Shown here piece after piece: positions 24,401 through 55,862 of a DNA stretch of 64,000 bases. The notes beneath the pieces were generated by a model. It was not told where the DNA came from, made no database searches, and worked only from the letters and a program-made list of their open reading frames with translations. Source of the stretch: Candidatus Omnitrophota bacterium (lineage in GTDB: Bacteria > Omnitrophota > Gorgyraeia > 2-01-FULL-45-10); the NCBI GenBank assembly GCA_026387175.1, contig JAPLME010000007.1:487-64486 (forward strand), in the 5' to 3' direction. A program made the translations under genes and the position numbers. Within the stretch, counting starts at the first letter, position 1, and each line of letters begins with the position of its first letter.

Positions 24401-26866
24401 ATGATGGACGCCTCGACGTTTACGGGATGGGATATTTCATATAATTCCGGGCACACGTGGATCATGGCTGGGTATCCGCATCTGCAGTGGGAGTGGACCG
24501 ACAAGATAACCAACGCCTCCCAGCTCCAGATGGTGACGCTCAATACTAGCGCTAACTATACCATCGCTAATAACATCGATGCCTTCGCCACTAAAGGATG
24601 GAATGGCGGGTTGGGTTTTAACCCTATCGATGATTTTGCGGGCATTTTTGATGGCAAGAACAAGGTCATCTCCAACCTCTATATAAATAGGCCTAGTGAG
24701 TACTATGTAGGCCTTTTTGGCAGCATAGGTACAGGTTCGCAGGAAGCCAGGATTACGAATACAAGGCTCGAGTCGGTTTCTATAACCGGCGATAGTGATG
24801 TGGGCGGCCTCGTCGGTAGTCTATCAAATAAAGGCGTGATTGAGAATTGCTCCGTAACCGGAACGGTAAAAGGCTATAATTACACTATAGGTGGACTGGT
24901 CGGTTATAATGGTATTTACGGAACTATCCTGCAGTCATTCACGTCCGCGATAGTAAGCGCTGTTTATGGTTATGGCTACATAGTGGGCGGTCTTGTGGGC
25001 ATGAATGTCGGTAATATTTATAATTCATACTCGACATCCGCTGTAAACAATGGTTATAAATATACCGGCGGACTTGTAGGTTCCAATGCCGGTAATATTT
25101 ATAATTCCTGGGCAACAGGGACGGTAAGCAGCAATATCAGTAGTAATGTCACCGGCAATATCAGCAGTAGCGATGGTGCTGGTGGACTTGTGGGCGCGAA
25201 CTCCGGAGGAATATACGGTTCCTGGGCAAGCGGAGCAGTAATAGGAGGCGCATATGGATCTTCGCATCTCGGCGGCCTGATCTCGGCCTCGTATGCGATA
25301 GGTAGTATTATAGGGCGTAACGCTTTCCGTATCGGCGGCCTTGTAGGAGAGAACCAGGGCAAAATATATAATTCCTGGGCAAGCGGAGCTGTGAACAGTG
25401 TATATAGCTATGCCGGAGGTCTCGTCGGATACAATGCAGCTAATGGTTTGATATCGGCTTCTTATGCCATAGGTAATGTCACGGCCAGCTCATCTATCGG
25501 CGGCCTCGCAGGTTTTAACGACAACGGCACTATCTCGGACTCATGGGCAAGCGGAACTATCGCTGGAGCTAGCAATATAGGCGGCCTAGTAGGAGATAAT
25601 ACAGGAACGATTTCTAACTCTTATGCTAAAGGGAGCCTTAAGAATGGCTGTGTTGCCGGCGGACTTGTCGGTGAAAACAAGGGCTCCGGCAAAATATATA
25701 ACTCTTGGGCCACCGGAGCTGTGGATGGGAGCTCATGTGCCGGCGGCCTTGTGGGGCTTAACAACATCGGAGCCATGATTTCGAACTCATGGGCAAGCGG
25801 CGCCATAAAGGGATATGCGTATTATTCTTCAGGCCTCGGCGGCCTGGTCGGGACCAACGCCGGTATAATTTCGGCCTCGTATGCTACAGGTAGTGTTATC
25901 GGTGCGCTCAATGCAGTTCGTCTCGGCGGCCTTGTAGGAAATAACTGCGGCAAAATATATAGCTCATGGGCGAGAGGAGCCATAACCGGCGCATATACCT
26001 ATGCCGGTGGATTAGTCGGATATAACGAAGTTAATAGTTTGATTTCATACTGTTATGCGCTAGGCGCTGTTACCGGCACCTACTTTGCCGGCGGACTTGT
26101 AGGCCAGAACCGCGGCACGATCTTGAGTTCCCGGGCAAACGGCGTTGTAAATGGACAATCACTTGCCGGCGGCCTCGTTGGAGATAATTATGGCGTAATT
26201 TCCGCCTCTTATGCCACAGGCAGTGTCACCAGTACTGGTGCCGACATCGGCGGACTTGTAGGCCAGAACCGCGGCACGATCTTGAGTTCCTGGGCAAGCG
26301 GAGCCGTGAAGGGGAGATCTGAAGTCGGCGGCCTCGTCGGATGGAATGACGGACTGATCTCGGCCTCGTATGCTTTGGGCAATGTTATTGGCTCTGCTAT
26401 TCTTGGCGGCCTTGTAGGCGACAATTATTATTCCGGCACGATCTCGAATTCATGGGCCGGGGGAGCCGTAACCGGGGATACAAATGTTCTATCTTTTCAA
26501 TCCTTTGCCGGCGGATTGGTGGGAAATAATCATGGCTTGATCTCAACCTCCTGCGCCACCGGTAATGTTACCACAGCCTCTTCCTGGATCGGCGGGCTTG
26601 TGGGTATAAATTACGGCAAAATATATAATTCCTGGGCGTCGGGAATAGTAAAAGGATATGATTTCGTTGGCGGGCTCACAGGTTTTAATAATAACACGAT
26701 CTCTAATTCCTGGGCGAGGGGAACTGTAAGCGGGCATTACTACGTCGGCGGCCTGGTGGGCGCCAACTACGGCCTGATATACAAGTGCCGGGCATTTGGC
26801 CGCGTATTCGGTTCACGTTATGTAGGTTGGCTAGTCGGTTATAACGCTGGGACCATAATATACTAG
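21443..26866 (+). pseudogene. Second giant GLUG-repeat protein, interrupted by one in-frame TAG at 21683-21685. As a single frame it would encode about 1807 aa.
   Basis: ORFs 21443..21685 and 21971..26866 share a frame, and I translated 21686..21970 with no further stop. The N-terminal 80 codons are highly similar to the 18434 paralog, including its signal peptide. The ORF-track alternative is a 1631-aa product from the internal ATG at 21971, which would lack a signal peptide. Confidence 0.6.
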
Positions 26867-26996: not shown

Positions 26997-27055
26997 TGGG
27001 TATACACTCATAAAATAAGCTGTGGATAGATTTTGTAAAATGGGGGTTTAATTTT

Positions 27056-27385
27056 ATGCCGATGGGAAAGGATAGCGAAAAACCGGTAAAAAAAGGCCGG
27101 CCTATCAAGGCCAGGATAGTGCATAGGGAGCCGGGGACAAAACAATTTAGCCCTCGCGGCAGGCGAGGGAGGCCGGGCTATAACGCTCTGAAGCACGAGG
27201 AGTTGGAGGCTATAAGATTGGCCGATTTTACAGGCTTGAAACAGGCCGAGGCTGCCGAGCAGATGAACATAAGCCAGCAGACGTTTTCCAGGGTCTTGAG
27301 ATCCGGCCGGAAATGCCTGGCGGAGGCCATTGTATTGGGCCATATAATAAAGGTCGATGGGGGAGACTTCAAGCTTGAAAAATAA
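27056..27385 (+). CDS. DUF134 / UPF0251-family predicted DNA-binding protein
   Basis: Basic N-terminus, then ..ALKHEELEAIRLADFTGLKQAEAAEQMNISQQTFSRVL.. This matches the sigma-70 region-4-like HTH signature of COG1342/DUF134. Confidence 0.65.
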   Translation: MPMGKDSEKPVKKGRPIKARIVHREPGTKQFSPRGRRGRPGYNALKHEELEAIRLADFTGLKQAEAAEQMNISQQTFSRVLRSGRKCLAEAIVLGHIIKVDGGDFKLEK

Positions 27386-27451
27386 GCTAAAATCCATATA
27401 ACGTCCTAAGTTAACATTGATGTTTAGTGCGATTTGTGATATGGTTATGGT

Positions 27452-28315
27452 ATGGCTAAAGGGTTAAGAACAAGATTGAACCAGGAAGAGTTGCGCAGGC
27501 TATATCTTGTAGAGAAAAAATCTCTCGAGGATATCGCGCGGCTACATGGTGCATCCAGGGTTGCCGTGTGGAAGTATTGTAATGCCGAGGGCTTGACGAG
27601 GCGCACCAGGTCGGCCGCCAGATTGGAAGCCCAGAAAAAAGGAAAAGTTCCCCAGGGCTTCTTCGAAATAAATGATAATTTTTTCAGTAATTGGTCTCCG
27701 GAAATGGCGTATGTTTTGGGATTAATCGCCACCGATGGTTGCGTTTCTAAATCCGGTACCGTGTCGCTCTGTATAAACGATAAAGATCTATTAGAAAAAG
27801 TAAGACTGGTTATGGATTCCGAGCATAAGATATGCCGGTCAAAGTATCAAGAAGGGTTATATTCTTTTCATTTTGCAAGGCCCCGGTTAGTTAAGGACTT
27901 GGCAGCGCTTGGTATTCTGCCCAGGAAGAGCCTGAATATTAAGTTTCCGGCAGTTCCGGATGCTTTTTTGATTGATTTTGTCAGAGGAGTTTTTGATGGT
28001 GACGGCTCCGTGTATTTTGAAAAACGAAGCGAACGCTATCCTTTAAGAACGACATTTGTCAGCAGCTCGCAAGAGTTCATTGAAAAACTGGAGATCGTTC
28101 TGCGGCAAATGGGGTTACCTGAACGTGTAATACACAGGCAAACTACGAAAAACGGATTACATTTTAAGATCAGATATAGTCATAAAGATAGCGCGAAACT
28201 GTTTCATTTGATGTACAATGACACTGCCAATTCCTTGTTTTTGGGGCGTAAATATAATAAATTTTTGGATGGTTTTCAGAAAGAAAATAGCGGAGCTGAA
28301 TATAATGGAAAATGA
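27452..28315 (+). CDS. Free-standing LAGLIDADG-family endonuclease-like protein (two LAGLIDADG motifs) with an N-terminal HTH extension
   Basis: The N-terminal ~65 aa form an HTH (SLEDIARLHGASRVAVWKYC). Motif 1 is YVLGLIATDGCVS and motif 2 is FVRGVFDGDGSVY, both keeping the acidic residue. The ~110-aa spacing is typical of single-chain LAGLIDADG enzymes. Confidence 0.65.
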   Translation: MAKGLRTRLNQEELRRLYLVEKKSLEDIARLHGASRVAVWKYCNAEGLTRRTRSAARLEAQKKGKVPQGFFEINDNFFSNWSPEMAYVLGLIATDGCVSKSGTVSLCINDKDLLEKVRLVMDSEHKICRSKYQEGLYSFHFARPRLVKDLAALGILPRKSLNIKFPAVPDAFLIDFVRGVFDGDGSVYFEKRSERYPLRTTFVSSSQEFIEKLEIVLRQMGLPERVIHRQTTKNGLHFKIRYSHKDSAKLFHLMYNDTANSLFLGRKYNKFLDGFQKENSGAEYNGK

Positions 28316-28517
28316 GCTAGAGGCATGGCGCAAAGCGCATAAATTTTACTCATGTAGCGCCTATTTGACGAAAGATTTAGCAGCATATCTAAAAGTCTCA
28401 CCCAGGACGGTTCAGAGGTGGCTAAAAGGAAAGACGCATCCCAAAGAAACGCAATTAGGCCTTATCAAAAAATATCTATCCGAAAACTCCAAAAATACCA
28501 CCAAAAGCGAAATATAG
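28305..28517 (+). CDS. Small HTH DNA-binding protein
   Basis: ATG at 28305 overlaps the upstream stop (ATGGAAAATGA), implying translational coupling. HTH segment TKDLAAYLKVSPRTVQRWLKGK. Confidence 0.5.
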   Translation: MENELEAWRKAHKFYSCSAYLTKDLAAYLKVSPRTVQRWLKGKTHPKETQLGLIKKYLSENSKNTTKSEI

Positions 28518-28746
28518 AGTTAAATATTAATCCGCTGACCCAATAGAAGGCGCCTAAGGACAGTTGTTTGTTTCCCTTCATATATGTCGCACTGCGCCCG
28601 ATAATATATCTTATGTTAACTTGCCAAGCACAAAGTAATTGATATAAGATATTGATGTACAATGTCTTCTGTGTTTATGCGGTTTTCCTGTTGATAAGTG
28701 TATCTCTGCGGGAATCCATTCAACTAACTGCAGTATTGACTTGCGG

Positions 28747-29097
28747 CTAAGTCTTTTCAACTTCTATTGAATCGACCAGGAATTCTTTATTATATATGAT
28801 ATCCAGGTCTGAATCATTGCATTTAACGCATCTGGTGGTCGGTTTATCTACTGAAAAAGTATGTTTGCAAGAACGGCATTTTATTTCGAGCTGCAACACC
28901 TTGATATTAAGAGCTGTATTCTCGAATTTCGTGCCTTTTGTCATGGCCTTGAAGGTCTCGGTAAGGGTTTCGGGTTTGACATGGCTTAAAGGGCTTAATG
29001 CGGCATTTACAGTGATGATTTTAGAGCCTTTTGGTATAGTATTCAGCTTATCATTAAGAGCATTCAATATCTCTTTAGTAAACATCAAATCATGCAT
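28747..29097 (-). CDS. hypA: Hydrogenase nickel-insertion / maturation factor HypA-like zinc-ribbon protein
   Basis: MHD.. N-terminus (HypA starts MHE). About 115 aa. C-terminal CxxC-x13-CxxC (CRSC...CVKC). Confidence 0.5.
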   Translation of the reverse strand: MHDLMFTKEILNALNDKLNTIPKGSKIITVNAALSPLSHVKPETLTETFKAMTKGTKFENTALNIKVLQLEIKCRSCKHTFSVDKPTTRCVKCNDSDLDIIYNKEFLVDSIEVEKT

Positions 29098-29108
29098 TTA
29101 TAGGCTTT

Positions 29109-29501
29109 CTATAGCTGTATTTTTGACCGGATCTCTTCAGGTATTCTGGTCGGCTTCAAATTACCATTTACGCAGGCCCAAACTGCCTTGCAGATAAGTA
29201 AAGTGGTCTCTCCCCTTTTGATCTCCTGTATAAAATTAAGAGAGGCATTTCCTACTTTTTCAGGTCTGGTAAATATACGGATTATATCACCGTATCTGGC
29301 GGGACATTTATAGTCTATTTCCAGGTGTACTACGGGAAATATTATGCCGTTTTTCGCGTATTCTACAAGGTCTACGCCGATATTGCAAAAGTACTCTGTG
29401 CGGGCTTCCTCAAGATGCTTTAGATAGGCGCCGTAATACACAACGCCTCCCGCATCCGTATCATGATAGTACATCTTTTTTTGCAGGTAGAAATCTTTCA
29501 T
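29109..29501 (-). CDS. Acyl-CoA thioesterase, hotdog fold (YbgC/4HBT family)
   Basis: N-terminal YHDTDAGGVVYYGAYLKHLEEARTEYF, the 4HBT signature with a catalytic Asp. Confidence 0.65.
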   Translation of the reverse strand: MKDFYLQKKMYYHDTDAGGVVYYGAYLKHLEEARTEYFCNIGVDLVEYAKNGIIFPVVHLEIDYKCPARYGDIIRIFTRPEKVGNASLNFIQEIKRGETTLLICKAVWACVNGNLKPTRIPEEIRSKIQL

Positions 29502-29505
29502 GTTC

Positions 29506-30132
29506 TTATATCCTCAGAGCAAATTTTATGAATGCCAGTATGACATTCTCCGCTGATATTATAATCGGATTTAGTATTCCTGTAAACAATAAAGCGAACA
29601 GTATTAGCAGGCTATACGGTTCAATCTTTGCCAGCATCGCTTGGCCCTCTTCCGGCAATATACCATAAAGTATTCTTGAGCCGTCCAATGGCGGTATTGG
29701 GATAAGGTTGAACGCTCCTAATATAATATTGATCTTGGCCATGACCACCAGAATTACGGGAACCATCGGAATTGCGGTTATCGTTTTGAACTGGAGCAGC
29801 AGAATGGATAAAGTCGCGATGGCGATATTAGTCACGCAGCCGGCCAGTGATACACAGATCAAGCCAAGCCTGAAATTTCTTAAATTCGAATATACAATTG
29901 GCACAGGCTTTGCCCATCCGAACCCCACCAGGAATAACGCGAGCGTTCCTACCGGGTCCAGATGAACTAACGGGTTTAGCGAAAGCCTTCCGGTGCGTTT
30001 TGCGGTATCGTCGCCGAAAAGATACGCTATCCAGCCATGGGATATTTCATGCAATATTATCGAGTATAAGAGCGGGATGGCGAGGATGGCGAACGCGATC
30101 GGATCCTTAAATAATAGTGAGGCCAGCCCCAT
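29506..30132 (-). CDS. Site-2 protease family zinc metalloprotease (M50)
   Basis: HExxH in a TM helix (ILHEISHGWIAY). Multi-pass membrane protein. LDGSR motif. Confidence 0.7.
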   Translation of the reverse strand: MGLASLLFKDPIAFAILAIPLLYSIILHEISHGWIAYLFGDDTAKRTGRLSLNPLVHLDPVGTLALFLVGFGWAKPVPIVYSNLRNFRLGLICVSLAGCVTNIAIATLSILLLQFKTITAIPMVPVILVVMAKINIILGAFNLIPIPPLDGSRILYGILPEEGQAMLAKIEPYSLLILFALLFTGILNPIIISAENVILAFIKFALRI

Positions 30133-30147
30133 GAGTATATAAACCCG

Positions 30148-30837
30148 TTATTTTCTGGGATATTTGCTCAATATCTCGAGCAATGAATCTGCCGATTTAG
30201 GCATTTTTGCCATCTCTTCAAGCAGTATCTGTCTTGCTGAAAAACTCTTACCGTACAACGCAAAGTTACCGTCCCATTCTTGCGTTATCACGGCGCCCTC
30301 CAGCTTTACGCCAGCGAATAACCCGCGGCTTCTGGAATATGAAAGTATGCCGCCTTTCATCTGTATATCCGTTGAAGCTTCAGCGGCCCTGCCTACAGGC
30401 CCTGCCGCGACCGATGCATCGGCGCCAAGCTTAAATTTTCCATCCAGTATTCCGTCAACGCTTCTTCGATTCATTATAAGCAGGACGAAGTCCGTGCCCT
30501 GGATACCTATCTGCCATCCGAAACTGCCGCCGGCCATTGTAAACGCGGCTGGTGGCGACCACTGGCCGGTCTTTTCATCCCGTACCATAATAATACCCTG
30601 GCCGTATTTGCCGCCGAATATAAAACCGGCTGAGACGGTGTTCGGGAATATGCATATGGCATGGCAGCTTCTCATGAGATCTTCAGGTATCGACTGATCG
30701 GGCATCTGCTGTATCTCGCCGAGCACATGCCCGGCTTCCTCGACCAGTCTCCCCCACCTCGATTCAGCATATACAAAAGGGCTCGCGCAAGACGCAATTA
30801 CCATAAAACTTAACACTGCAAGAGCCAATTTTTTCAT
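30148..30837 (-). CDS. Lipid-binding SYLF (Ysc84/DUF500) domain protein, secreted
   Basis: GGAGG RBS before the ATG at 30837. The ORF-track start at 31098 would overlap the PiT gene. Signal peptide. SYLF-like core GFIFGGKYGQGI...GGSFGWQIG. Confidence 0.55.
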   Translation of the reverse strand: MKKLALAVLSFMVIASCASPFVYAESRWGRLVEEAGHVLGEIQQMPDQSIPEDLMRSCHAICIFPNTVSAGFIFGGKYGQGIIMVRDEKTGQWSPPAAFTMAGGSFGWQIGIQGTDFVLLIMNRRSVDGILDGKFKLGADASVAAGPVGRAAEASTDIQMKGGILSYSRSRGLFAGVKLEGAVITQEWDGNFALYGKSFSARQILLEEMAKMPKSADSLLEILSKYPRK

Positions 30838-30866
30838 GAAAACCTCCTTTTTATTTTCTTGCAACA

Positions 30867-31856
30867 CTACCTTTTCAAACTGGTTGCGTAGTATGCCATG
30901 GCAGATAATAACGCAGAACATGGTATGGTTAATACCCATGCCCACACAATTTGCCCGGCTACGCCCCACTTTACCGCGCTCATGCGTTTTAAGGAGCCCA
31001 CGCCGACAATGGAACCCGTTATAGTGTGTGTGGTGCTTACCGGGATTCCGAATGCGGACGATACGAAAAGAGTTATGGCTGCGCCAAATTCCGCGCAAAA
31101 CCCATCGACTGGTTTTAATTTTGAGATCTTCTGCCCCATCGTCTTGACAATACGCCAGCCGCCGAACATTGTGCCGACTGAGATCGCGCTATAGCATGCT
31201 ATGACCACCCATGAAGGCGTATGATAAGTGCCGCCTAAAAGACCGGCGCTGAATAGAAGACTTGCGATGATCCCCATCGTCTTCTGGGCGTCATTTCCGC
31301 CATGGCCCATGCTGTAGAAAGCCGCGGATACCAGCTGTCCTTTCCTGAAGATGTGATCGACCTGCATGGGCGAGCTTTTTCGGAATAGCCAGTAGACCGC
31401 TATGCCGATGCCAAGGCCGAGAACCAGACCTAAAGCCGGAGAGATGAATATGAAAGAGACGGTTTTTAGAATGCCTTTCCAAACGAGGGTCTTTGGGCCG
31501 GCTTTTATCAGGGCCGAACCGATCATTCCTCCTATAAGCGCGTGCGAAGAACTTGTGGGGAGACCGAAATACCATGTGATTATATTCCAGCCGCATGCTC
31601 CCACAAGAGCGCCGAATATTATGTGCTTGTCGATAATATGTATATCGATTATGCCTGTGCCGATCGTATTTGCGACATGAAGGCCGAAGAACGCGAATGC
31701 GATAAAATTGAAGAATGCCGCCCATATGATGGCTATGCTGGGCGAGAGTACGCGGGTGGATACTACAGTCGCTATGGAGTTAGCGGAGTCGTGAAAGCCG
31801 TTCAAAAAATCAAAAGCCAGGGCGAGGATGATCAGTAATATGATGCTGAGGGTCAT
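30867..31856 (-). CDS. Inorganic phosphate transporter, PiT family
   Basis: N-terminal GFHDSANSIAT and a second repeat GHGGNDAQKTMG. About 10 TM helices. Confidence 0.85.
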   Translation of the reverse strand: MTLSIILLIILALAFDFLNGFHDSANSIATVVSTRVLSPSIAIIWAAFFNFIAFAFFGLHVANTIGTGIIDIHIIDKHIIFGALVGACGWNIITWYFGLPTSSSHALIGGMIGSALIKAGPKTLVWKGILKTVSFIFISPALGLVLGLGIGIAVYWLFRKSSPMQVDHIFRKGQLVSAAFYSMGHGGNDAQKTMGIIASLLFSAGLLGGTYHTPSWVVIACYSAISVGTMFGGWRIVKTMGQKISKLKPVDGFCAEFGAAITLFVSSAFGIPVSTTHTITGSIVGVGSLKRMSAVKWGVAGQIVWAWVLTIPCSALLSAMAYYATSLKR

Positions 31857-31859
31857 TTA

Positions 31860-32489
31860 TCAGGCCTGTTTAACGAGTATGGACTGGACCACATGCGCGA
31901 CGTCTTCGCATATATCAAGCACCGTCTCCGCGTCCTGGTAGATCTCTTTACGCTTTATTACGTCTATCGGGTCCTTTGAGGTCTCAAAAAGCTCTGCAAG
32001 GACATCATCTCTCATTGTGTCGCCCACGTTTTCGAGCCGGTGCACCTCTACGCAGGATTCCTTTACGACTTTTAAATTTTTACTGTTGCGCAAGCCCCTA
32101 ACGGCGCATGCCACCGCGCGCGTCGATTCCTCGATCACCTTGGAGAATTCGATAAGATTTTTGTCCGCGCCGAGTGTCTTATATGTTTTCATGCGATTGA
32201 CGATAGTGTAGAGCATGTCGACTATATCGTCGAGCTCCTTAGCGAGGGCATGGATGTCTTCGCGGTCGAAAGGGGTTATAAACGTCTTGTCCAGGCGATT
32301 GAGGATATCGTGCGCGATCTCGTCTCCGCGATGCTCGAGGTCATGCATCTTTTTGAGTGATTTCTCATCCAGGACCTCCGGTTTGGTTACCAGCTCCCTG
32401 AAATTAGCCGCCGCCTCTACCGCGCAGGCGGCCTGCTTTTCGAAAAGGTCGTAAAAATTGAATTCTTTAGGAAGAAAACTAAAGCCCAT
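31860..32489 (-). CDS. DUF47 (PhoU-like) phosphate-transport regulator, partner of PiT
   Basis: Typical DUF47 N-terminus (LPKE.NFYDLFE..A) and LE..GDEI motif. Immediately upstream of the PiT gene, as is usual. Confidence 0.75.
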   Translation of the reverse strand: MGFSFLPKEFNFYDLFEKQAACAVEAAANFRELVTKPEVLDEKSLKKMHDLEHRGDEIAHDILNRLDKTFITPFDREDIHALAKELDDIVDMLYTIVNRMKTYKTLGADKNLIEFSKVIEESTRAVACAVRGLRNSKNLKVVKESCVEVHRLENVGDTMRDDVLAELFETSKDPIDVIKRKEIYQDAETVLDICEDVAHVVQSILVKQA

Positions 32490-32648
32490 AACGCTCCTTT
32501 TATTATTTTATTATTAGTCCTGTTTAGCACATTATAGATGGTGAAAGGCGTTTGTGTCAAGACGTTATAATCTTCTTTGAGGCCCTGCTCTTGCCTTTGG
32601 TTATTAGTATGATATAATTGATAAAACAAAACATAAGGAAAGGGTATA

Positions 32649-33899
32649 ATGAAAAGAGTCATAGCGCTTATTTTAGGCGGCGGACAAGGTAAAAGGCTTT
32701 TCCCTCTCACCGAATACCGGTCCAAGCCGGCGGTTCCGATAGCGGCAAAGTACCGGCTCATAGATATTCCTGTATCAAACTGCCTCCACTCCGGGATTAA
32801 GGACATATATGTGCTTACGCAATTTAACTCTGAATCCCTGAACAACCATATAAATAATACATACCGGTTCGACTATTTTTCCAGGGCGTTCGTAAGGATA
32901 CTTGCCGCAGAGCAGACGGTCGATAATACGAACTGGTTCCAGGGGACAGCTGATGCCGTGAGGAGAAATCTGTTTCATCTTAACCTTGAGGGCGATGAGA
33001 TGATACTTATTCTCTCGGGCGACCATCTTTATAACATGGACTATCGAAAGTTCATAACTTTTCACACGAAGCATGGAGCTGATTTCACTTTATCCGCGAT
33101 ACCGATAAAGACGAATGAGGCCGGTGAGTTCGGAGTTATAAAACTGAATCGGGATAACAGGATCATCGGATTTAAGGAAAAGCCCAGGAACAGGACTGAG
33201 CTTAAAGGCTACGTTTTTAAAGGCGATATGCATGGTGTGAGGACTCTGCCGGGAGCGTACTGTCTCGCCTCTATGGGCGTGTACGTATTTAACGCAAATG
33301 CCCTGATGAAAGTCCTGGAAGGCAATGACGCGGATTTCGGAAAAGAGGTCATCCCGAATTCTATAAAAAATTATACAGGGGCGGGTTATGTGTTCGATGG
33401 TTACTGGAAGGACGTCGGCACGATAAAATCATATTATGATGTAAATATGGATCTCGCTAGCGGAAAACAGTACATGTCATTCTTCTACGACGGGTCGGTA
33501 TTTACGAGGCCCCGCTTCCTTCCTGTGGCGAGGATATCCAACTGTAAGCTGGAAAAATCGCTGGTGGCCGAAGGGTCCGTAATAACGGATGCCAGCATAT
33601 CCCACTCGATCGTGGGCGTGCGCTCTATCGTCGGTAAAAACTGCAGAATATCGAGAACGGTGCTTATAGGCGCCGATTTCTATGAGGCGCCGGGTAGCTC
33701 CGAGCCGATAAAGATAGGCGTCGGTGACGGTACGGTTATAGACAAGACCATCGTGGATAAGAACGCCAGGATCGGCAGGAATGTCGTTATAAGAAATATT
33801 AATAAACTGAAAAATTACGATGGCGGGAACTATTTCATCAGAGACGGCATCGTGGTTATTCCGAAGAACGCGAAGATCAAGGACGGCACGCGCATTTAA
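32649..33899 (+). CDS. glgC: Glucose-1-phosphate adenylyltransferase
   Basis: LILGGGQGKRLFPLT..SKPAVP..YRLIDIPVSNC N-terminal nucleotidyltransferase signature, and a C-terminal left-handed beta-helix. Confidence 0.9.
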   Translation: MKRVIALILGGGQGKRLFPLTEYRSKPAVPIAAKYRLIDIPVSNCLHSGIKDIYVLTQFNSESLNNHINNTYRFDYFSRAFVRILAAEQTVDNTNWFQGTADAVRRNLFHLNLEGDEMILILSGDHLYNMDYRKFITFHTKHGADFTLSAIPIKTNEAGEFGVIKLNRDNRIIGFKEKPRNRTELKGYVFKGDMHGVRTLPGAYCLASMGVYVFNANALMKVLEGNDADFGKEVIPNSIKNYTGAGYVFDGYWKDVGTIKSYYDVNMDLASGKQYMSFFYDGSVFTRPRFLPVARISNCKLEKSLVAEGSVITDASISHSIVGVRSIVGKNCRISRTVLIGADFYEAPGSSEPIKIGVGDGTVIDKTIVDKNARIGRNVVIRNINKLKNYDGGNYFIRDGIVVIPKNAKIKDGTRI

Positions 33900-34770
33900 T
33901 CCCCTGGCAGCTTTCTCTCTTCATTAAGGTCTCTTTTATCTTTTGGATCGTCCCCGGCTTGTCGAGCGCCCAGAGCGGGGCAATATGGTCTGGCCTCTTC
34001 CCCTGGCCCGTAAGGCGATGTATTATGATGCCATCAGAAAGGTTCTCTAGGAAATCGCAGACAAGCTCTACATATTCTTCCTGGGCCAGGACTCTTATAT
34101 CGCCATTTTTATAGAGTTTTTCGAATTCGCTTCCCTTAAGAATGTGCAAGAGATGTATCTTCACGCCATCGACCTTCAGCTCGGTGAGCTTCCGTGCGGT
34201 CCCGACGATCTCCTCTTTTGTCTCGCCGGGAAGGCCGATTATTACATGTACGCATACAGGTATCGATAATTTTTTCGTATCGTCGTAGGCCCTTAAAAAG
34301 TCACTAAAGTTATGGCCGCGGTCTATGGTTTTAAGGGTTCGGTCGTGTATCGATTGAAGTCCATACTCCAGCCAGACCTCGTATCTGTCTTTGTACGAAG
34401 ATATCAATTTTAACTTATCAGCGTCTACGCAGTCGGGACGCGTCCCTATAGATAAGCCTATTATCTCTTCAAAAGGCAATATCTGGTCATAGATCTCTTT
34501 TAACCGGTTTACGGGAGAGTTGGTGTTAGTGAAGGCCTGGAAGTATGCGACGAATTTTGACGCATCCCCGGACTTCTTCAAATATTCTATCCGGCCTGAA
34601 AGTTGTTCCGTAATGGATTTTTTCGGGTCCGCGTAAGATGAGCGTGAGCCGTCTTCGTTGCAATAGAGGCAGCGATGAGGACATGAAAATCCGGCATCGA
34701 GCCCGATGCGATAGACCTTAGTGCCGTATCTTTCCTTCAGGTATGAGCCGTAGTCGTTGTAAAGTTTCAT
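33877..34770 (-). CDS. TIGR01212-family radical SAM protein (YhcC-like)
   Basis: CPHRCLYC radical SAM cluster motif near the N-terminus. Size and motifs match TIGR01212. The 3' end overlaps glgC convergently by 23 bp. Confidence 0.7.
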
Positions 34771-36603: not shown

Positions 36604-36732
36604 TATACTTAACATTGGATGACAACGGCTCACTGACCCGTTCTCGGGTTCATGGTACACCGTACCGCAAGATGCTGTTGCCATCCGGACTTCTTCCCGC
36701 CATTAAGGAAAATGGCGGGTTTTTTATTTTTA
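36604..36732 (+). ncRNA. Candidate small structured RNA (about 115 nt) ending in an intrinsic terminator, in the mnmG / response-regulator intergenic region
   Basis: A TATACT -10-like hexamer at 36604-36609. A long-range stem ggatgacaacgg..ctgttgccatcc enclosing two hairpins. Then a terminator. No + strand CDS is present. Confidence 0.25.
36696..36732 (+). terminator. Rho-independent terminator, + strand orientation only
   Basis: Stem cccgccat/atggcggg with loop taaggaaa, followed by TTTTTTATTTTT. The opposite strand has no U-run after the hairpin. Confidence 0.6.
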
Positions 36733-36766: not shown

Positions 36767-37144
36767 TTATTTCTTGCGCAGCGGCGCAAGAGAAAGCATT
36801 ATCTGCAGCGCTTTCAATGCCTCTTCAAGATTGATCGGTTTCGTTATGTAGTAATCCGCTTCAAAGGCATATCCCTTCATTATGTTGACAGGCTCTGAAA
36901 TCGCGCTTACTATTATCACCGGCACCCATTTCCTCGACGATCTTATCTCTTCGAGAAACGCGAAACCGTCTTTTTTAGGCATCCTTATATCGCACATGAC
37001 TATGTCGGGATTATCGGAATCGAATTTCTTTATTCCATCCTCGCCGTCACATGCCTTTGATACTGCGTAGCCGCGAGCGGTAAAAAAATCCGAGAGCGTA
37101 TCTACGATATCTTTCTCGTCGTCGATTATCAATATTTTCTGCAT
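36767..37144 (-). CDS. Single-domain response regulator (CheY-like receiver)
   Basis: ILIIDDEKD acidic pocket, phospho-acceptor D in VMCDIRMP, and a conserved K. No output domain. Confidence 0.8.
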   Translation of the reverse strand: MQKILIIDDEKDIVDTLSDFFTARGYAVSKACDGEDGIKKFDSDNPDIVMCDIRMPKKDGFAFLEEIRSSRKWVPVIIVSAISEPVNIMKGYAFEADYYITKPINLEEALKALQIMLSLAPLRKK

Positions 37145-37193
37145 ATAGGCATAGCCTTACTTTTGCTGATCAGATCTTTCCGGAAATCGCCTT

Positions 37194-38414
37194 TTAAAGG
37201 CTTATTATCGAGTCGAACGTGCCGAAAGAGTTCTGTTCGCGCTCCTTATTCTGAGAATCCGATATCCATTCGCCGTCGATAATGAATTTGTATTTATGCC
37301 TGCCTGCGGTTAATCCCAGCTTCTTTTCCCATCTGCCGTTATCAAGCCTCGAGAGACGGCAGTCTTCGGTGATCTTCCAGTTATTGAAATCACCGACAAC
37401 GTATATCTCCTTTGCGCTCGGCGCGTCTACGTTAAAGAGTATATCCCTCGGAGAGGTCGTCGACTCTTCAATATTATTGGTAACTCCTCTGGGCAAGTTC
37501 ATGACCGGCGCGGCGCTTTCGCGCGCGACGTCACTTACCGTTTCTTCTATTCTTGAGCCGGATGATGGCAGGACGGCTTCGGCACTCCGGGCGGTCTCTG
37601 TAGCCGCCGTCGGCGATACGGCGTTCAACGCCTTTTCGAATTCAAGGGCTCCATCCGCCCTAAGCATCTCCTGAGCCAAGGCCATATAATCCTTCGCGCC
37701 GATAGAGTCCTTATTGAACCGGGTAATACATACCCCTTTGGCGGCGGCTTTTTTCAGGTCTACATTCATTCTTATCACGGTCGATAGTAACTGGTCCTTA
37801 AAGAACGCTTTTATCTCGTTATACATGACCTCAGAGTATTTTGTCCTCCTGTCATAGAGAGTGGCGAGCGCGTTTACCTGAGGCGAATGGAATATCTTTA
37901 TCTTTATCAGTTCCAGCATACCAAGAAGCTTTCCGACGCCCATCAAAGAGAGCGCGCTCATGTCTATCGGAACTATTACCTGGTCGCAAGCGCGTAATGC
38001 GTTAAATGTCAAGAACCCCAGGCTCGGCGGGCAGTCTATGACCATATAATCGTAGTCCAGATGGCTCATCGTCAGCGCCTGGTGCAATTTTGATACCGCG
38101 TCTTCCTTGTCCTTTAATTCCTGTTCAAGGGTGCTTAATAGTATATTCGCGGGCACTATATCCAGATTAGGAGAAACGTTGACTATGCAATCTTTTATGG
38201 GGCGGTTCTTTTCCGGATTATCCGTCAGGACGTTGTAGACAGAGCGGTCCATGCTCTGATTCGTCCGGTTGAGGCTGAAGCTCGCATGAGCCTGAGGGTC
38301 GAGATCCACCACCAGGGTCTTTTTACCCGTCTCCGCAAGTGCGCCTGCGAGATTTATGGCCGTCGTGGTCTTACCGCAACCGCCCTTTTGATTGGCTATT
38401 GCTATTTTCTTCAT
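37194..38414 (-). CDS. ParA/MinD-family ATPase fused to a C-terminal CBM48 / AMPK-beta-type glycogen-binding domain
   Basis: Deviant Walker A KGGCGKTT near the N-terminus, then a ParA-like fold to about aa 250. A Ser/Ala/Thr-rich linker follows. C-terminal IYVVGDFNNWK..HKYKFIIDGEWISD..NSFGTFDSIISL. Confidence 0.75.
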   Translation of the reverse strand: MKKIAIANQKGGCGKTTTAINLAGALAETGKKTLVVDLDPQAHASFSLNRTNQSMDRSVYNVLTDNPEKNRPIKDCIVNVSPNLDIVPANILLSTLEQELKDKEDAVSKLHQALTMSHLDYDYMVIDCPPSLGFLTFNALRACDQVIVPIDMSALSLMGVGKLLGMLELIKIKIFHSPQVNALATLYDRRTKYSEVMYNEIKAFFKDQLLSTVIRMNVDLKKAAAKGVCITRFNKDSIGAKDYMALAQEMLRADGALEFEKALNAVSPTAATETARSAEAVLPSSGSRIEETVSDVARESAAPVMNLPRGVTNNIEESTTSPRDILFNVDAPSAKEIYVVGDFNNWKITEDCRLSRLDNGRWEKKLGLTAGRHKYKFIIDGEWISDSQNKEREQNSFGTFDSIISL

Positions 38415-38459: not shown

Positions 38460-39263
38460 CTATAAATATTTTTTGGCGTAACGTACGCCATTTTTAAAGA
38501 TAGCGAATCCGTCGCCATCTGTTTTTTTCTTATTCCTGGTCCAGCTCGGATGCTGGTAGGCTCTTATGTGCCGTTCAGGATGAGGCATCAGGCCGAATAT
38601 GCGGCCGCTGGGATCGCATATCCCGGCTATATTCTCTATCGAACCGTTCGGACAATATGGATAAGGCGCCCTCTTCCCCGCGCTATCGACATACTCGAAG
38701 ACCACCAGGCCTTTATCCTTCATTCTCTTCAATACGTTTTTATCTTTCGGGATGAATTTGCCTTCGCCGTGCGCTACCGGAAGCTGTATGATCTTATCTA
38801 TGCCTTCGGTCCAAACGCATCCGGCCCCCGCTCCCCGGCCCCCAACCTTTTTCAGGTATACCCATCTGTCTTCAAATTTGTCCGAATCATTCAATGTAAG
38901 GGTCGACTCTATCGTTTGGGCGTCGCCGGCAAGGTTAGGCAGGAGCCCGGCCTTGACCAGGACCTGGAAACCATTGCATATTCCGATGATAAGTTTACCG
39001 CTATTTATGAATTTTCGCAAGGGCCCGCCGATCTTGTACTTCAGCTCATTGGCAAGGATCTTGCCGCTGGCTATATCGTCGCCATAAGTGAACCCGCCGG
39101 GTATCGCCATGATATGGTAACTATCCAGGCTCTTCTCTTTTCGCGTCAGTTCATTAATGTGCACCAGCTCGCTCTCGGCACCCGCTTCCTCGAAAGCGAA
39201 CGCCGTCTCCTTATCGCAATTTGTTCCGGCGGTCCTTAGCACTATGACTCTTATCTTACCCAT
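38460..39263 (-). CDS. purQ: Phosphoribosylformylglycinamidine synthase subunit PurQ (glutaminase)
   Basis: N-terminal KIRVIVLRTAGTNCDKE. Class-I glutamine amidotransferase Cys (GICNGFQ) and His/Glu. Confidence 0.85.
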   Translation of the reverse strand: MGKIRVIVLRTAGTNCDKETAFAFEEAGAESELVHINELTRKEKSLDSYHIMAIPGGFTYGDDIASGKILANELKYKIGGPLRKFINSGKLIIGICNGFQVLVKAGLLPNLAGDAQTIESTLTLNDSDKFEDRWVYLKKVGGRGAGAGCVWTEGIDKIIQLPVAHGEGKFIPKDKNVLKRMKDKGLVVFEYVDSAGKRAPYPYCPNGSIENIAGICDPSGRIFGLMPHPERHIRAYQHPSWTRNKKKTDGDGFAIFKNGVRYAKKYL

Positions 39264-43667: not shown

Positions 43668-45077
43668 TTACGCTTTCTTCATTCCGGCGCACCTCGTCTT
43701 TTCAAGGGCCTTCTTGGACGGAGGCCGGCATATCGTCGTAGGATAGTTTCCGGTGAAGCATGCGGTGCAGAACTCTTCTTTGGGCAGAGTCATCGAGCTA
43801 AGCATGCCCTCAAGAGATATAAATTTTAAGCTGTCGACCCCTATGAACTCTCTTATCTCTTCGACGGAGTGGCTCGACGCGATCAGCTCTTTTTTGGTCG
43901 GGAAATCTATTCCGTAAAAACATGGTGAGATAAGCGGCGGACAGCTCACTCTCATATGTATCTCTTTGGCGCCAGACGCCCGCAGCGCCCTGACCCTGCC
44001 TCTGGAGGTCGTGCCCCGCACGATGGAGTCCTCCACTATGACTATCCTCTTACCTTTCAGGGCGTCTTTTACGGGGTTCAACTTGACCTTCACCTTGAAA
44101 TCCCTTATGAGCTGGCTTGGCTGGATGAAGGTCCTGCCTATATAATGGTTCCTGACGAAAGCTATTTCCAGCGGCAGCTTGGATTCCTCGGCAAATCCGA
44201 GCGCCGCGCATGTGCCGGAATCGGGAATGGGCATTACCATGTCCGCATTGGCGGGATGCTCTCTAGCTAGCGTCTTGCCGAGGTTCTTCCTCGCAAGGTA
44301 TACGCTCTGGGTGAATATGTTGGAATCCGGCCGTGAGAAGTAAATGTATTCAAATATGCAGAATGCGTGCTTTTTGGATTCGGGCTGTTTCAGGGATCTT
44401 ATGCCGTTCTTGTCGATTATTACGATCTCCCCCGGCTCGACATCCCTTACGTAGGATGCCTCGACCATGTCCAGCGCGCATGTCTCGCTCGCGACGATAT
44501 ACGCGTCGCCCATCTTTCCTATGCAAAGCGGCCTGAATCCGTGAGGGTCGCGCATCGCGTAGATCGCGTCATTTATCATTATCACGAACGAAAACGCGCC
44601 CTCGAGCCTGTCCATTATCGGCAATAGTTTCCCCGAGTAATTATTCTGGTGGTCCTTCACCAGGAGATGCAGTATAAGTTCCGAGTCCATCGTGGTCTGT
44701 AATATGGAGCCGGCGTCTTCGAGCTCATTTCTCAAGGCGACCGAATTTGTGAGGTTGCCGTTATGGGCGACGGCTATGAAACCTTTTTTATGGTTGATCA
44801 AGAGCGGCTGGACGTTCTTTGCCGTCGAGGAGCCTGTGGTGGAATAGCGGACGTGCCCGATCGCGAGATGGCCTTTAAGCTTCTTGAGATTTTCCTCTTT
44901 GAAGACATTGCCGACCAGCCCCTGCCCCTTATGCATATATATCTTCTTCTTGTCGAAGCTTACGATGCCGGTCGATTCTTCGCCGCGGTGCTGCAGCGCG
45001 TAGAGGGCCAGGTAGGCAAGCTGCGCGGCGTTCTTATGCCCGTATATCCCGACCACACCGCAATAATCTTTCATCAT
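43668..45077 (-). CDS. purF: Amidophosphoribosyltransferase
   Basis: Ntn Cys in [13 protein letters not shown]. PRTase motif ([13 protein letters not shown]). C-terminal Cys cluster. Confidence 0.9.
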
Positions 45078-46651
45078 GATTTGAGCTCTTTATGATATTC
45101 CTGCAGGCTCTTTACGGAAACATTTGGTTTTTTTATCATATGTTCAATTCCGTTCACGGAAGCTTGCGCTCCGGAAACTGTAGTGATAAGAGGCACATTG
45201 TAAAGCGTAGCGTGTGAACGTATCTTCACCTCATCCGCCTTAGTTACTTTGCCGGAAGGAGTGTTGATGATCAGATCCACCTTTCCGTCTTTCATCAGGT
45301 CGAGCACATTGGGGCGGCCCTCATTGAGTTTCGGCAGGACCTGCACGTCGACATCATTACTCTTCAGCGCGTCCGCTGTGCCGGATGTCGCCATGATATT
45401 AAATCCAAGGTCCTCCAGCTTCTTCGCGACGAATACGATATTGCGCTTATCCTGGTTCTTGACGCTTATGAATACGTTCCCTTTTATCGGGAGCCTCTGC
45501 CCCGCGGCGATCTGGCTCTTGGCGTATGCGGCGCCGAAGGTGGCGTCTATGCCCATCACCTCGCCGGTAGATTTCATCTCAGGGCCCAGTATCGCGTCTA
45601 CCCCCGGGAATTTTATGAAAGGAAATACCGATTCTTTTACCGCGACGCACCCTACCTTCTTTTCTTTGGTGAAGCCGAGTTCCTTCAGGCTCTTGCCGAG
45701 CATTACTTTTGTCGCGAGTTTTGCCAGCGGCGCACCTATGGCTTTACTTACGAAAGGGATCGTCCTGGAGGCTCTCGGGTTCACCTCAAGCACATATACG
45801 ATATTGTTTTTGACGGCGTATTGCACGTTCATCAGACCCTTGACATTCAATTCCATCGCCATCGCGAACGTATTCTTTCTTATGGTTTCCAGGATGTCTT
45901 TACCCAGGGTGTGAGGCGGAATGACCATAGCGCTGTCGCCGGAATGGATGCCTGCCTCTTCTATATGTTCCAGTATTCCGCCTATGACGCAAATTTCGCC
46001 GTCGGCTATGGCATCGACGTCTACCTCGATGGCATCCTCGAGAAATTTATCGATAAGTATCGGATGTTCGGGAGACGCCTCCACCGCCTTCGCCATGTAA
46101 TCGGCGAGGCTCTTCTCGTCGTACACTATCTCCATCGCGCGTCCGCCCAACACAAAAGACGGCCTTACTACTACAGGATAGCCTATGCGCCCGGCCACCT
46201 CTTGCGCCTCGTCAAATGAAGTGGCTGTTCCATTGTCCGGCTGGATCAGCTTCAGCTTCTTCAGCATCAGCTGGAACAATTTTCTGTCCTCAGCCATGCT
46301 GATCGACTCGGGGCTAGTGCCCAGTATCTTAAGCCCTTTACTGGAAAGAGCGTTTGAGATATTGAGCGGCGTCTGGCCCCCGAATTGCACTATTGCCCCT
46401 ATGGGGTCTTCTATGGCCACTATATTCATTACGTCTTCTACCGTGAGCGGCTCGAAGTAAAGCCTGTCCGATGTGTCATAATCCGTTGAGACCGTTTCGG
46501 GGTTGCAGTTGATCATTATGCTCTCGAAGCCTTCTTCCCGAAGGGCATAAGAAGCATGACAGCAGCAGTAATCAAATTCGATACCCTGGCCTATTCGGTT
46601 AGGGCCGCCGCCAAGTATAAGAACCTTCTTATTATCGTTCTTTTTAAGCAT
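45074..46651 (-). CDS. carB: Carbamoyl-phosphate synthase large subunit, C-terminal half (second ATP-grasp plus MGS-like domain)
   Basis: Starts at the second CPSase repeat (KVLILGGGPNRIGQGIEFDYCC) and ends with an MGS-like allosteric domain. Complemented by the N-terminal half at 54195..55862. Confidence 0.8.
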   Translation of the reverse strand: MLKKNDNKKVLILGGGPNRIGQGIEFDYCCCHASYALREEGFESIMINCNPETVSTDYDTSDRLYFEPLTVEDVMNIVAIEDPIGAIVQFGGQTPLNISNALSSKGLKILGTSPESISMAEDRKLFQLMLKKLKLIQPDNGTATSFDEAQEVAGRIGYPVVVRPSFVLGGRAMEIVYDEKSLADYMAKAVEASPEHPILIDKFLEDAIEVDVDAIADGEICVIGGILEHIEEAGIHSGDSAMVIPPHTLGKDILETIRKNTFAMAMELNVKGLMNVQYAVKNNIVYVLEVNPRASRTIPFVSKAIGAPLAKLATKVMLGKSLKELGFTKEKKVGCVAVKESVFPFIKFPGVDAILGPEMKSTGEVMGIDATFGAAYAKSQIAAGQRLPIKGNVFISVKNQDKRNIVFVAKKLEDLGFNIMATSGTADALKSNDVDVQVLPKLNEGRPNVLDLMKDGKVDLIINTPSGKVTKADEVKIRSHATLYNVPLITTVSGAQASVNGIEHMIKKPNVSVKSLQEYHKELKS

Positions 46652-54194: not shown

Positions 54195-55862
54195 TTACTG
54201 ACTGTCGTAGGTGGAGTAATAGTACGGCGTGTATGCCTGAAATTCCGCAGCGCAGGTGTCGACCAGCTTATAGTCCGGTTTAATGTTGTGGGTCTTTCTC
54301 AAGGCGGAGATCTCATCCTCGGTAACTCCGGTCAGGAGCGCTATCTGGCGGTCGCTGAAACCGAACTCTTTTGCTGTCTTTAGCAGTTTTGCGGTGATGG
54401 GGCTCCCTTTCCGGGTGATCTCTTTTTCGAGTTCAATTATCTCTTTTATGTTATACAGGAACCACCTGTCGATACAGGTCAACTCATAGATCTTGTCTAT
54501 AGACACTCCGGCTCTTATGGCATCCCCGATATAGAATATCCTGTCGCAGTTGGGTTTTCTCAGCTTTTCATAGATGATGTTCAATGTGTCGTCGTCGGCC
54601 TTTATCTCCCGAGGATAATTTTTAAAGAGCAGGCTTTCAAGACCGCTCTTCTTTATTTCAAGAGATCTCAGGCCCTTCTGCAGGGACTCCTTGAAGGTCC
54701 TGCCGATCGACATCGCCTCCCCTACGGATTTCATCGATATAGTTAGCGTCGGATCGGCCGCAGGGAACTTTTCGAAAGTGAAGCGCGGTATCTTCACGAC
54801 GCAGTAATCGATCGACGGTTCAAAACATGCGGGAGTCTCTTTAGTGATATCGTTAGGTATCTCATCGAGCGTGTATCCGACCGCGAGCTTAGCCGCGATC
54901 TTCGCTATGGGAAAGCCCGTTGCCTTTGAGGCCAGCGCTGAGCTTCTTGAAACGCGGGGGTTCATCTCTATTACGACCATACGTCCGTTATCGGGGTTTA
55001 TGGCAAACTGTATGTTGGATCCGCCGGTTTCGACGCCTATCTCCCTTATGCAGGCTATTGCCGCGTTCCTCATGACCTGGTATTCCTTGTCGGTCAACGT
55101 TTGGGCCGGCGCGACAGTTATCGAATCTCCGGTATGCACGCCCATAGGATCAAAGTTCTCTATAGAGCATATGACGACGACATTATCCTTCTTGTCTCTC
55201 ATGACCTCGAGCTCAAACTCTTTCCAGCCGATCACGGATTCCTCGATGAGCACTTCGCTTATCATGCTGGAGTCCAGCCCTATCTTCGCCAGTTCCCTGA
55301 ACTCTTCCATGTTATAAGCGACAGCCCCGCCCGTTCCGCCCAGAGTGAAGCTCGGCCTTATTATTATAGGAAAACCGATCTTTTCGGCGACCGAGATCGC
55401 CTCATTAAGGTTATAGGCCTTACCGCTCTCCGGAAGGTCCAGCCCTATCTTCTGCATGGCCTCTTTAAAGAGATGCCTGTCTTCCGCCTTCTTTATCGCT
55501 TTTATATTGGCACCTATCATAGTGACCCTGTATTTTTTCAAAACTCCGGCTTTATCAAGCCCCACTGCGACGTTCAACGCTGTCTGTCCGCCCAGAGTCG
55601 GAAGAAGAGCGTCGGGCCGCTCTCTTTCGATGATCTTCCTTATCGCGTCCACGGTGATCGGTTCGATGTAAGTTTTATCCGCAAGCTCGGGATCCGTCAT
55701 GATAGTCGCGGGGTTAGAATTTATCAGGATCACTTTGTAACCTTCCTGCCTCAGGACCTTACAGGCCTGTGAGCCGGAATAGTCGAACTCGCAGGCCTGC
55801 CCTATCACTATGGGGCCGGAGCCTATTATCAATATCTTTTTCAGGTCTGTGCGTTTTGGCAT
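54195..55862 (-). CDS. carB: Carbamoyl-phosphate synthase large subunit, N-terminal half (first ATP-grasp plus oligomerisation domain)
   Basis: [26 protein letters not shown].. start and a complete first CPSase repeat. Stops after the oligomerisation domain at 555 aa. Confidence 0.85.

Follow-up and report, generated by a model that had tools for sequence, protein, structure and literature searches.

The 64,000-nucleotide (nt) stretch of Candidatus Omnitrophota DNA analysed here, referred to as the window, carries on its minus strand, at 37194..38414, a gene of 406 codons plus stop that joins a ParA-type ATPase and a glycogen-binding-type module of carbohydrate-binding module family 48 (CBM48) in a single open reading frame (ORF), with both Pfam domains scoring above their cut-offs. 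The encoded protein, here called ParA-CBM, consists of a ParA/Soj-type ATPase domain (residues 1-254; 37653..38414, minus strand), delimited by Pfam, solved-structure and Foldseek matches, a low-complexity flexible linker (residues 255-321; 37452..37652, minus strand), recognised from model confidence (pLDDT, predicted local distance difference test) and from an alignment of 35 sequences (A1), and an AMPK-beta-type CBM48 module (residues 322-406; 37197..37451, minus strand), identified by Pfam, phmmer and AlphaFold2. The motifs NQKGGCGKTT, IYVVGDFNNWK, GRHKYKFIIDGEWISD and NSFGTFDSIISL are readable in the 406-residue translation, and an AlphaFold2 model of the whole protein, built from a 35-sequence alignment, shows a ParA fold, a disordered stretch and an all-beta C-terminal domain. 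An initial annotation had singled out the gene, and its coordinates, quoted motifs, 49-nt gap to a downstream receiver gene, 3.3-kb distance to glgC and strand shared with purQ and purL all proved correct. The available data are compatible with a model in which this orphan ParA, its linker and its CBM48 module together form an ATP-gated tether or positioner of cytoplasmic glycogen, a reading that we hold tentatively and place only just short of an even chance.

The architecture of the protein bears directly on where and how it might act. The linker, about 65 residues long here, has pLDDT values below 50 across residues 267-319, indicating disorder, and ranges from roughly 25 to 140 residues among homologues, with neither length nor sequence conserved in alignment A1; being both disordered and variable in length, it fits what is expected of a tether. 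The translation opens at the Walker A strand and contains no signal peptide, so the ligand of ParA-CBM must be cytoplasmic. Taken in isolation, the protein is small and soluble-looking.

The fusion recurs across many genomes. An identical 406-residue protein lies in the order purQ, ParA-CBM, receiver and mnmG on nine contigs from independent sequencing runs, and the identical protein has been deposited from a Candidatus Omnitrophica metagenome-assembled genome (MAG). Scanning a single genome for each GTDB species returned 118 encoding stretches, with 80 loci kept; ORFs were called and clustered in 85 loci (L001-L085), and neighbour counts given below were taken over 82 non-redundant loci for the receiver and glgC, or over 80 loci for the upstream gene c1. 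Both PF13614 and PF16561 are present in all of the 120 best database homologues (56-89% identity), the C-terminal module is found in every one of the 84 ParA proteins called across the loci, and the fusion is likewise intact in 120/120 best matches of a branch labelled Thermodesulfobacteriota, which is abundant in metagenomes. Together with the nine contigs, these counts refute the explanation that an assembly error or frameshift joined separate parA and CBM genes, to which we assign a negligible probability and which the initial annotation had raised. The fusion is retained at divergence down to 41% identity.

The carriers, all of them uncultured, are mostly Omnitrophota, several being mislabelled as "uncultured Planctomycetia", while a second set carries the labels Thermodesulfobacteriota, Syntrophales, Syntrophorhabdales, "delta proteobacterium" or Binatia. 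When the ATPase domains are placed in a neighbour-joining tree, a crude one with a single outgroup, the Thermodesulfobacteriota-labelled set forms one clade nested within Omnitrophota, and at one of its loci (L086) ParA-CBM sits in an island-like cassette with DDE transposases on both flanks. The nested clade and the transposase-flanked cassette suggest that the whole fusion was transferred laterally once, from Omnitrophota into another phylum. A search of plasmids returned no ParA-CBM, only weak matches to the CBM alone, such as GlgB. Separately, one MAG (JADHVZ01) carries two ParA-CBM genes on different contigs (loci L063 and L079), with c1 upstream of only one of them; the pair may represent paralogues or a mixed-strain bin.

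The C-terminal module is assigned to the AMPK-beta/CBM48 group by several independent measures, as had been proposed from its motifs. Specifically, AMPK1_CBM (PF16561) matches residues 333-402 at 3.7e-11 and 43.5 bits against a cut-off of 26.8, and CBM_48 (PF02922) scores 26.0 bits against 22.4, the CBM models together spanning residues ~324-402; when the domain is scanned alone, the two scores rise to 47.2 and 29.4 bits. In a phmmer search with the C-terminal 93 residues, the solved CBMs of AMPK beta1 and beta2 are matched at E ~2e-8. The predicted beta-sandwich, the fold expected for such a domain, comprises seven beta strands over residues 323-405 with pLDDT values of 90-95. The AMPK beta1 residues W100, K126, W133, G147 and T148 correspond to W346, K376, W383, G398 and T399 and are all identical, as seen in the aligned segments FNNW346/W100, YK376F/K126, DGEW383/W133 and FG398T399/L146-G147-T148. 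Alignment A1 shows no variation at W346, K376, W383 and G398 and almost none at T399; deeper clades share the CBM core but have Gly at the T399 position. These positions are informative because of work on AMPK beta1, in which glycogen binding is lost in the mutants W100G and K126Q and reduced in W133L and G147R, and mutation of W100, W133, K126 and T148 yields an AMPK that is no longer inhibited by glycogen (PMC6274970). Glycogen synthesis, moreover, is reported to be encoded in Omnitrophota MAGs (PMC8542988), although that study reports the Ace Lake genera Kappaea, Aadella and Orphnella as trehalose-only, and the window itself holds a glgC gene.

An exhaustive search with the CBM domain alone against 1.84 billion representatives gave 7292 matches, the best of which contain the module in 3-18 tandem copies and have signal peptides, some also an alpha-amylase domain. 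Since the nearest relatives of the CBM are extracellular starch binders, the fused module appears to derive from a functional glucan-binding lineage, and on the basis of its residues it is predicted to bind glycogen or a related alpha-glucan. Among the database proteins, P0128, P0131, P0145 and P0160 are secreted proteins of ~400-490 residues with a signal peptide, four tandem AMPK1_CBM modules and no catalytic domain, and are apparently uncharacterised extracellular starch binders.

The same comparison bears on the possibility that the beta-sandwich has ceased to bind glycogen and now contacts proteins or other ligands, with no connection to storage polysaccharide. Two AMPK positions do differ, L146 being replaced by Phe and N150 by Asp (D401), and the K126 position is Gln in two sequences from a branch labelled Thermodesulfobacteriota/Syntrophaceae; in addition, the genomic link to glycogen genes is inconsistent, and CBM48-type modules in AMPK also contact protein. 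Against this, the five glycogen-binding residues of AMPK are retained with the conservation just described, and the closest relatives are starch-binding tandem CBMs, some of them on alpha-amylases, which leaves a module that no longer binds glycogen very improbable.

The N-terminal half was correctly recognised as a ParA-type ATPase with a deviant Walker A motif. AAA_31 (PF13614) covers residues 1-173 at E 1e-51 and 175.8 bits against a cut-off of 27, CbiA matches the domain at 6e-21 and 75.1 bits against 25.4, and other ParA/MinD Pfam models match as well. At the level of NCBIfam equivalogs, all ParA/MinD models remain below threshold, including ParA_partition (NF041546; 109.1 bits, cut-off 180) and minD_bact (50 bits, cut-off 213). 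The closest solved relatives by sequence are ParA of M. xanthus (8RAY; 4e-43, 151 bits) and Soj of T. thermophilus (4e-35, 125 bits), followed by Soj of H. pylori (9e-32); whereas the Soj/ParA group scores 114-151 bits, McdA reaches ~50 bits, MinD ~41 bits or less and MipZ 29 bits. Identity to B. subtilis Soj is 38.8%, calculated with a query sequence that may hold errors. In a Foldseek search with the full-length model, the M. xanthus and T. thermophilus proteins are matched at target-normalised TM-scores of 0.84-0.86 (E 1e-19) and H. pylori Soj at 0.81-0.82; this search is dominated by the ParA domain, its top 50 matches being all ParA-type, and is uninformative on the CBM.

The catalytic motifs are intact, namely NQK10GGCGK15TT with the signature lysine K10 and the P-loop lysine K15, D37/D39 and D127. 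K10, K15 and D39 are kept in 82 of the 83 family sequences, the exception being a gap in a 5'-truncated ORF, and D127 is kept in all 83, from which ATP-dependent dimerisation and ATPase activity are predicted. The picture is less uniform for the surface that, in B. subtilis Soj, binds DNA through R189, K201, R215 and R218 (PMC6393308). R189 corresponds to R190, which is invariant in the family, and K201 to K202, which is Lys or Arg in 63/83 sequences. In contrast, R215 is replaced by M216, a position that is hydrophobic or Gln in the family, and R218, the equivalent of R238 in M. xanthus ParA, is replaced by D219, where the family has Ala, Thr, Ser or Asp (once Val). In M. xanthus ParA, the substitution R238E abolishes non-specific DNA binding (PMC12462528). 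Beside the eroded positions, R215 of ParA-CBM is invariant and K221/K222 are nearly invariant, and these residues might rebuild a basic patch. The loss of two of the four basic residues nevertheless means that nucleoid binding is not secured and that the working surface of the ATPase is undecided. As such, the nucleoid matrix assumed in the initial annotation becomes uncertain, retaining the invariant R190 in its favour and losing the key arginine, and DNA binding by the ATPase is the chief uncertainty of any mechanism. The pocket that in M. xanthus ParA receives the ParB peptide (V116, L150, L152, L155, L187, L192) corresponds to Q98, L132, F134, F137, L169 and I174, hydrophobic at five of the six positions. 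Being mostly retained yet altered, it would be compatible with a different peptide partner, for instance the N-terminal tail of c1.

The gene appears to be an orphan. A motif scan and tblastn with a B. subtilis Spo0J query detected no ParB within 10 kb of the gene, either in the window or across loci L001-L085, and a B. subtilis Soj query found no second ParA in the same range, although it recovered the target gene from each of the sequences; both query sequences may contain errors. The 1.3 Mb formed by window and loci holds no parS site, even when two mismatches are allowed. With ParB, parS and a second ParA all missing within 10 kb, the gene does not lie in a canonical parABS locus, and such a locus is ruled out locally. 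There are likewise no min genes among the annotated neighbours, neither minC nor minE, and no carboxysome genes near the gene, whose neighbours are purQ and the receiver here and c1 elsewhere. ParA-CBM is thus not demonstrably a chromosomal ParABS ParA, an McdA or a MinD, as judged from its sequence.

These results need to be weighed against the idea that ParA-CBM is a glycogen sensor, that is, a chromosomal Soj-like or cell-cycle ParA whose CBM48 senses glycogen as in AMPK, so that, through sequestration of the protein on glycogen or its release, carbon reserves would influence chromosome segregation, the control of replication or cell division. The ATPase is indeed nearest to chromosomal ParA/Soj (151 bits to M. 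xanthus ParA, 125 bits to T. thermophilus Soj) rather than to cargo ParAs, and the CBM belongs to the AMPK-beta subtype PF16561. One large Omnitrophota block has the gene close to mnmG/gidA, beside which chromosomal parAB is classically found, and in other Omnitrophota contexts several neighbours encode proteins that work on DNA, namely a UvrD/AddA-like helicase-nuclease, RmuC and an HhH-GPD glycosylase. A sensor of this kind is nonetheless unlikely, given that neither ParB nor parS was found within 10 kb in the 85 loci and the window, that ParA_partition stays well under its cut-off, that Asp occupies the position of the key DNA-binding arginine (D219), and that the transposase-flanked cassette of the Thermodesulfobacteriota-labelled branch resembles an accessory function more than core segregation.

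The commonest neighbour of ParA-CBM across relatives is c1, an uncharacterised gene of ~240 codons that directly precedes it, in the same orientation, in 39/80 loci (for example L005:9287-9997, L012, L013 and L017). It occurs in at least four contexts, behind purQ, an M23 peptidase, RmuC, a PC4-like gene or a UvrD/AddA-like helicase, and is missing from the window and from the nearest relatives of the window. The protein has no Pfam match and begins with a strongly conserved 32-residue peptide, MxKTIExLKKPxxKxDVLxxHIADTYFYQKxR, followed by a basic stretch. Its model shows a long helix with a single membrane span and then a beta jelly-roll (pLDDT >90) that resembles CBM30, CBM11, CBM29 and CBM4 modules (Foldseek E ~1e-6). 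By the positive-inside rule, the peptide would be cytoplasmic and the jelly-roll would lie outside the cytoplasm. We regard c1 as a candidate partner of the ATPase and its peptide as a candidate regulator. The initial annotation had described an adaptor-less system; the direct fusion of the cargo module to the ATPase stands, while the picture it gave is incomplete, as c1 accompanies the gene in about half of the loci and not in the window. In the Thermodesulfobacteriota-labelled branch, ParA-CBM is always followed by c13, which encodes 145-190 residues with no Pfam match (loci L035-L046, L050, L052 and L053; L086:11285-11722). Since the neighbours vary between lineages, the fusion itself is the sole universal feature. 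Additionally, a short conserved upstream ORF (cluster 33) is common to six Thermodesulfobacteriota-labelled loci and may represent a non-coding element and not a true gene.

An arrangement of this type, a ParA-family ATPase with a surface-binding element and a putative peptide partner, also invites a reading that follows the logic of MinD, in which CBM48 replaces the amphipathic helix and glycogen itself is the matrix. The ATP dimer would then coat the glycogen surface, and the coat would recruit, exclude or pattern a partner such as c1 or glycogen enzymes. As in MinD, the element that would bind the surface is found at the very C-terminus, here after a linker, and the erosion of the DNA-binding patch (M216, D219), the mostly kept partner-peptide pocket and the position of c1, with its conserved N-terminal peptide, directly upstream in 39/80 loci are all in keeping with it. 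The invariant R190, together with K202, R215 and K221/K222, could however still make a DNA-binding patch, a single CBM48 would bind glycogen in any nucleotide state and leave control by ATP to avidity alone, and no partner gene was found in the window. Glycogen as the matrix is therefore considered quite unlikely.

The reading that we favour, a tether or positioner of cytoplasmic glycogen, would work as follows. ATP binding would dimerise the ATPase domain, as it does in deviant-Walker-A ATPases generally, and the dimer would display two CBM48 modules on flexible tethers, the linkers of 25-140 residues. The paired modules would then give the dimer a bivalent hold on glycogen particles, with the ATPase body docked on a matrix for which the nucleoid is the most probable candidate. 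Hydrolysis, whether it is intrinsic or triggered by a peptide from a partner, would subsequently restore monomers with a weak hold on glycogen and thereby release the complex. The expected outcome would be that glycogen particles are tethered and spread through the cell, and so passed to both daughters. In many relatives, the cytoplasmic N-terminal peptide of c1 would be the candidate regulator of the ATPase, though not in the window.

Several observations weigh against this model. First, two of the four basic-patch residues of Soj are lost (R215 to M216 and R218, equivalent to R238 of M. xanthus ParA, to D219). Second, a membrane-bound c1 with a predicted extracytoplasmic fold is ill-suited to a simple picture of glycogen held on the nucleoid. 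Third, outside one synteny block no glycogen gene lies near ParA-CBM in the loci compared. Finally, a cargo binder fused to the ATPase would provide no cargo-localised stimulation of ATP hydrolysis, which diffusion-ratchet positioning needs. As no stimulator is seen on the cargo, tethering or spreading is better justified than directed positioning or active transport.

Comparison with known systems places ParA-CBM between several of them. Specifically, it shares with chromosomal ParA/Soj (B. subtilis, T. thermophilus 1WCV, M. xanthus 8RAY, H. pylori 6IUB) the fold, at TM-scores of 0.81-0.86, 34-39% identity, the deviant Walker A motif with its signature lysine, Walker A' and B, the R189 equivalent and most of the pocket. 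It departs from them in having no adjacent ParB or parS, a sub-cut-off ParA_partition score, no equivalents of R215 and R218, and an extra linker of ~65 residues with an 85-residue CBM48. Like the ParA members of the McdA-McdB, PomZ-PomXY, ParC-ParP and PpfA systems, it is an orphan that apparently serves a non-DNA component, and in many genomes it likewise adjoins a small uncharacterised partner gene. Unlike in those adaptor-using systems, the cargo module is fused to the ATPase instead of residing on an ATPase-stimulating adaptor, and the predicted cargo is a polysaccharide. The sequence score to McdA is low (~50 bits), and whereas McdB is a small, largely disordered cytoplasmic protein, the commonest neighbour here, c1, is a membrane protein. 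The initial annotation had listed polyhydroxybutyrate (PHB) granules among the cargoes of ParA-like ATPases, which is imprecise; it is through adaptors of the PhaM/PhaF type that these granules are attached to the nucleoid.

The binding module has its own relatives. It resembles the glycogen-binding domain of AMPK beta and other CBM48 modules (SEX4/LSF, PTST and the N-termini of GlgB and GlgX) in its Pfam families, contact residues and predicted beta-sandwich. In plant PTST, CBM48 brings a non-catalytic partner to a glucan particle, and the module of ParA-CBM would do likewise. It differs from the other CBM48 proteins in its host, which is a P-loop ATPase and not a kinase scaffold, a phosphatase, a coiled coil or a glycoside hydrolase. 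The comparison with MinD extends to the C-terminal surface-binding appendage, whose bivalent display upon ATP dimerisation would control binding; it ends at the amphipathic membrane-targeting helix and the minC/minE neighbours, both of which are lacking, and at a score of ~41 bits or less.

The engine and the binding module are thus each familiar, which is not true of the way they are combined, of the polysaccharide implied as cargo or matrix, or of c1 as a candidate partner. Searches of the searchable literature for the fusion, for links between ParA-family ATPases and glycogen or carbohydrate binding, and for partition and glycogen genes in Omnitrophota returned no description of the fusion and no paper linking a ParA-family ATPase to glycogen or CBM48, in agreement with the earlier view that a ParA-CBM48 system is undescribed, and a 2024 review of the ParA/MinD family never mentions glycogen, granules or storage. 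That this might be the first ParA/MinD system with a storage polysaccharide as its cargo or working surface, with c1 supplying the stimulating peptide, is nonetheless a claim somewhat likelier to fail than to hold. ParA/MinD ATPases are a general bacterial means of positioning large cellular objects, and the organisation and inheritance of bacterial glycogen particles are essentially unstudied. ParA-CBM offers a clonable candidate for glycogen organisation that has been kept phylum-wide and apparently passed to a second phylum, as well as a natural test of whether a ParA can work with its cargo binder fused to it, or with a polysaccharide as its surface. If the model is true, daughter cells would share glycogen by an adaptor-free route, or the granule surface would constitute a third matrix beside nucleoid and membrane.

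The immediate neighbours of ParA-CBM in the window were compared across relatives. A stand-alone CheY-like receiver of 125 residues (36767..37144, minus strand; PF00072) lies 49 nt downstream; its Response_reg domain is complete (1.9e-27, 96 bits), and D8/D9, D52, S80 and K102 are readable. The receiver is probably co-transcribed with ParA-CBM in the window. It had been proposed as a regulatory partner, a role that distribution does not bear out, as a receiver lies within four genes in 9/82 non-redundant loci, mostly of the subclade to which the window belongs, and is missing in the relatives L003 and L005. This poor co-occurrence rules it out as a core component, and it would at most be a lineage-specific input. 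In the 206-nt gap between receiver and mnmG, a GC-rich hairpin (36696..36719) is terminator-like by consensus match alone, with a 9-bp stem and a T-run on the plus strand, an A-run preceding the stem on the minus strand; it possibly ends a transcription unit comprising the pur genes, ParA-CBM and the receiver. On the other side, purQ (38460..39263, minus strand), identified from its translation and from GATase_5 at the orthologous position in relatives, lies upstream across a gap of 45 nt, and purL lies upstream along with it on the same strand.

The gene for ADP-glucose pyrophosphorylase, glgC (32649..33899, plus strand; NTP_transferase 1e-59, LbH_GLGC 6e-41), is 3.3 kb away, and this proximity had been read as a link to glycogen metabolism. 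In the clade of the window, the conserved order is purF, guaA, purL, purQ, ParA-CBM, a variable position, mnmG, a radical-SAM gene and glgC, the last on the reverse strand. The stretch from purQ through mnmG to glgC reflects shared ancestry and is thus not independent evidence of a glycogen link; glgC is found within four genes in 10/82 loci, all belonging to one synteny block, and its proximity is dismissed as a functional linkage in favour of inherited synteny. Apart from ParA-CBM itself, the loci contain no CBM48 ORF. In relative L004, two genes sit between ParA-CBM and the receiver, h141 (11214-11642), which encodes a 140-residue membrane protein with no Pfam match, and a LOG/lysine-decarboxylase-like gene (11639-12283), and the arrangement is similar in L006 and L008-L010. 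An hmmsearch of six-frame ORFs returned no homologue of c1, h141 or LOG in the window.

The remainder of the window holds features of a different kind. Its cumulative GC skew peaks at 27000-34000, and its genes converge from a plus-strand block (113-26866) and a minus-strand block (28747-63435), the pattern expected of a replication terminus, ~9 kb from ParA-CBM, which could also be a local effect. A LAGLIDADG_3 homing-endonuclease-like ORF (27452-28315, plus strand) lies at the strand switch, and next to it is the stretch of lowest GC content in the window (28001-30000; 0.41 versus ~0.48 elsewhere). The large subunit of carbamoyl-phosphate synthase is split into two ORFs (54195-55862 and 45074-46651, both minus strand) that lie ~7.5 kb apart, the N-half with the oligomerisation domain and the C-half with the MGS domain; the relative L001 has a single carB of 1090 residues. 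Finally, three large surface-type proteins are encoded on the plus strand at 113-3265, 18434-21391 and 21971-26866, one being an autotransporter that carries PATR repeats and the others GLUG-motif proteins (985 and 1631 residues).

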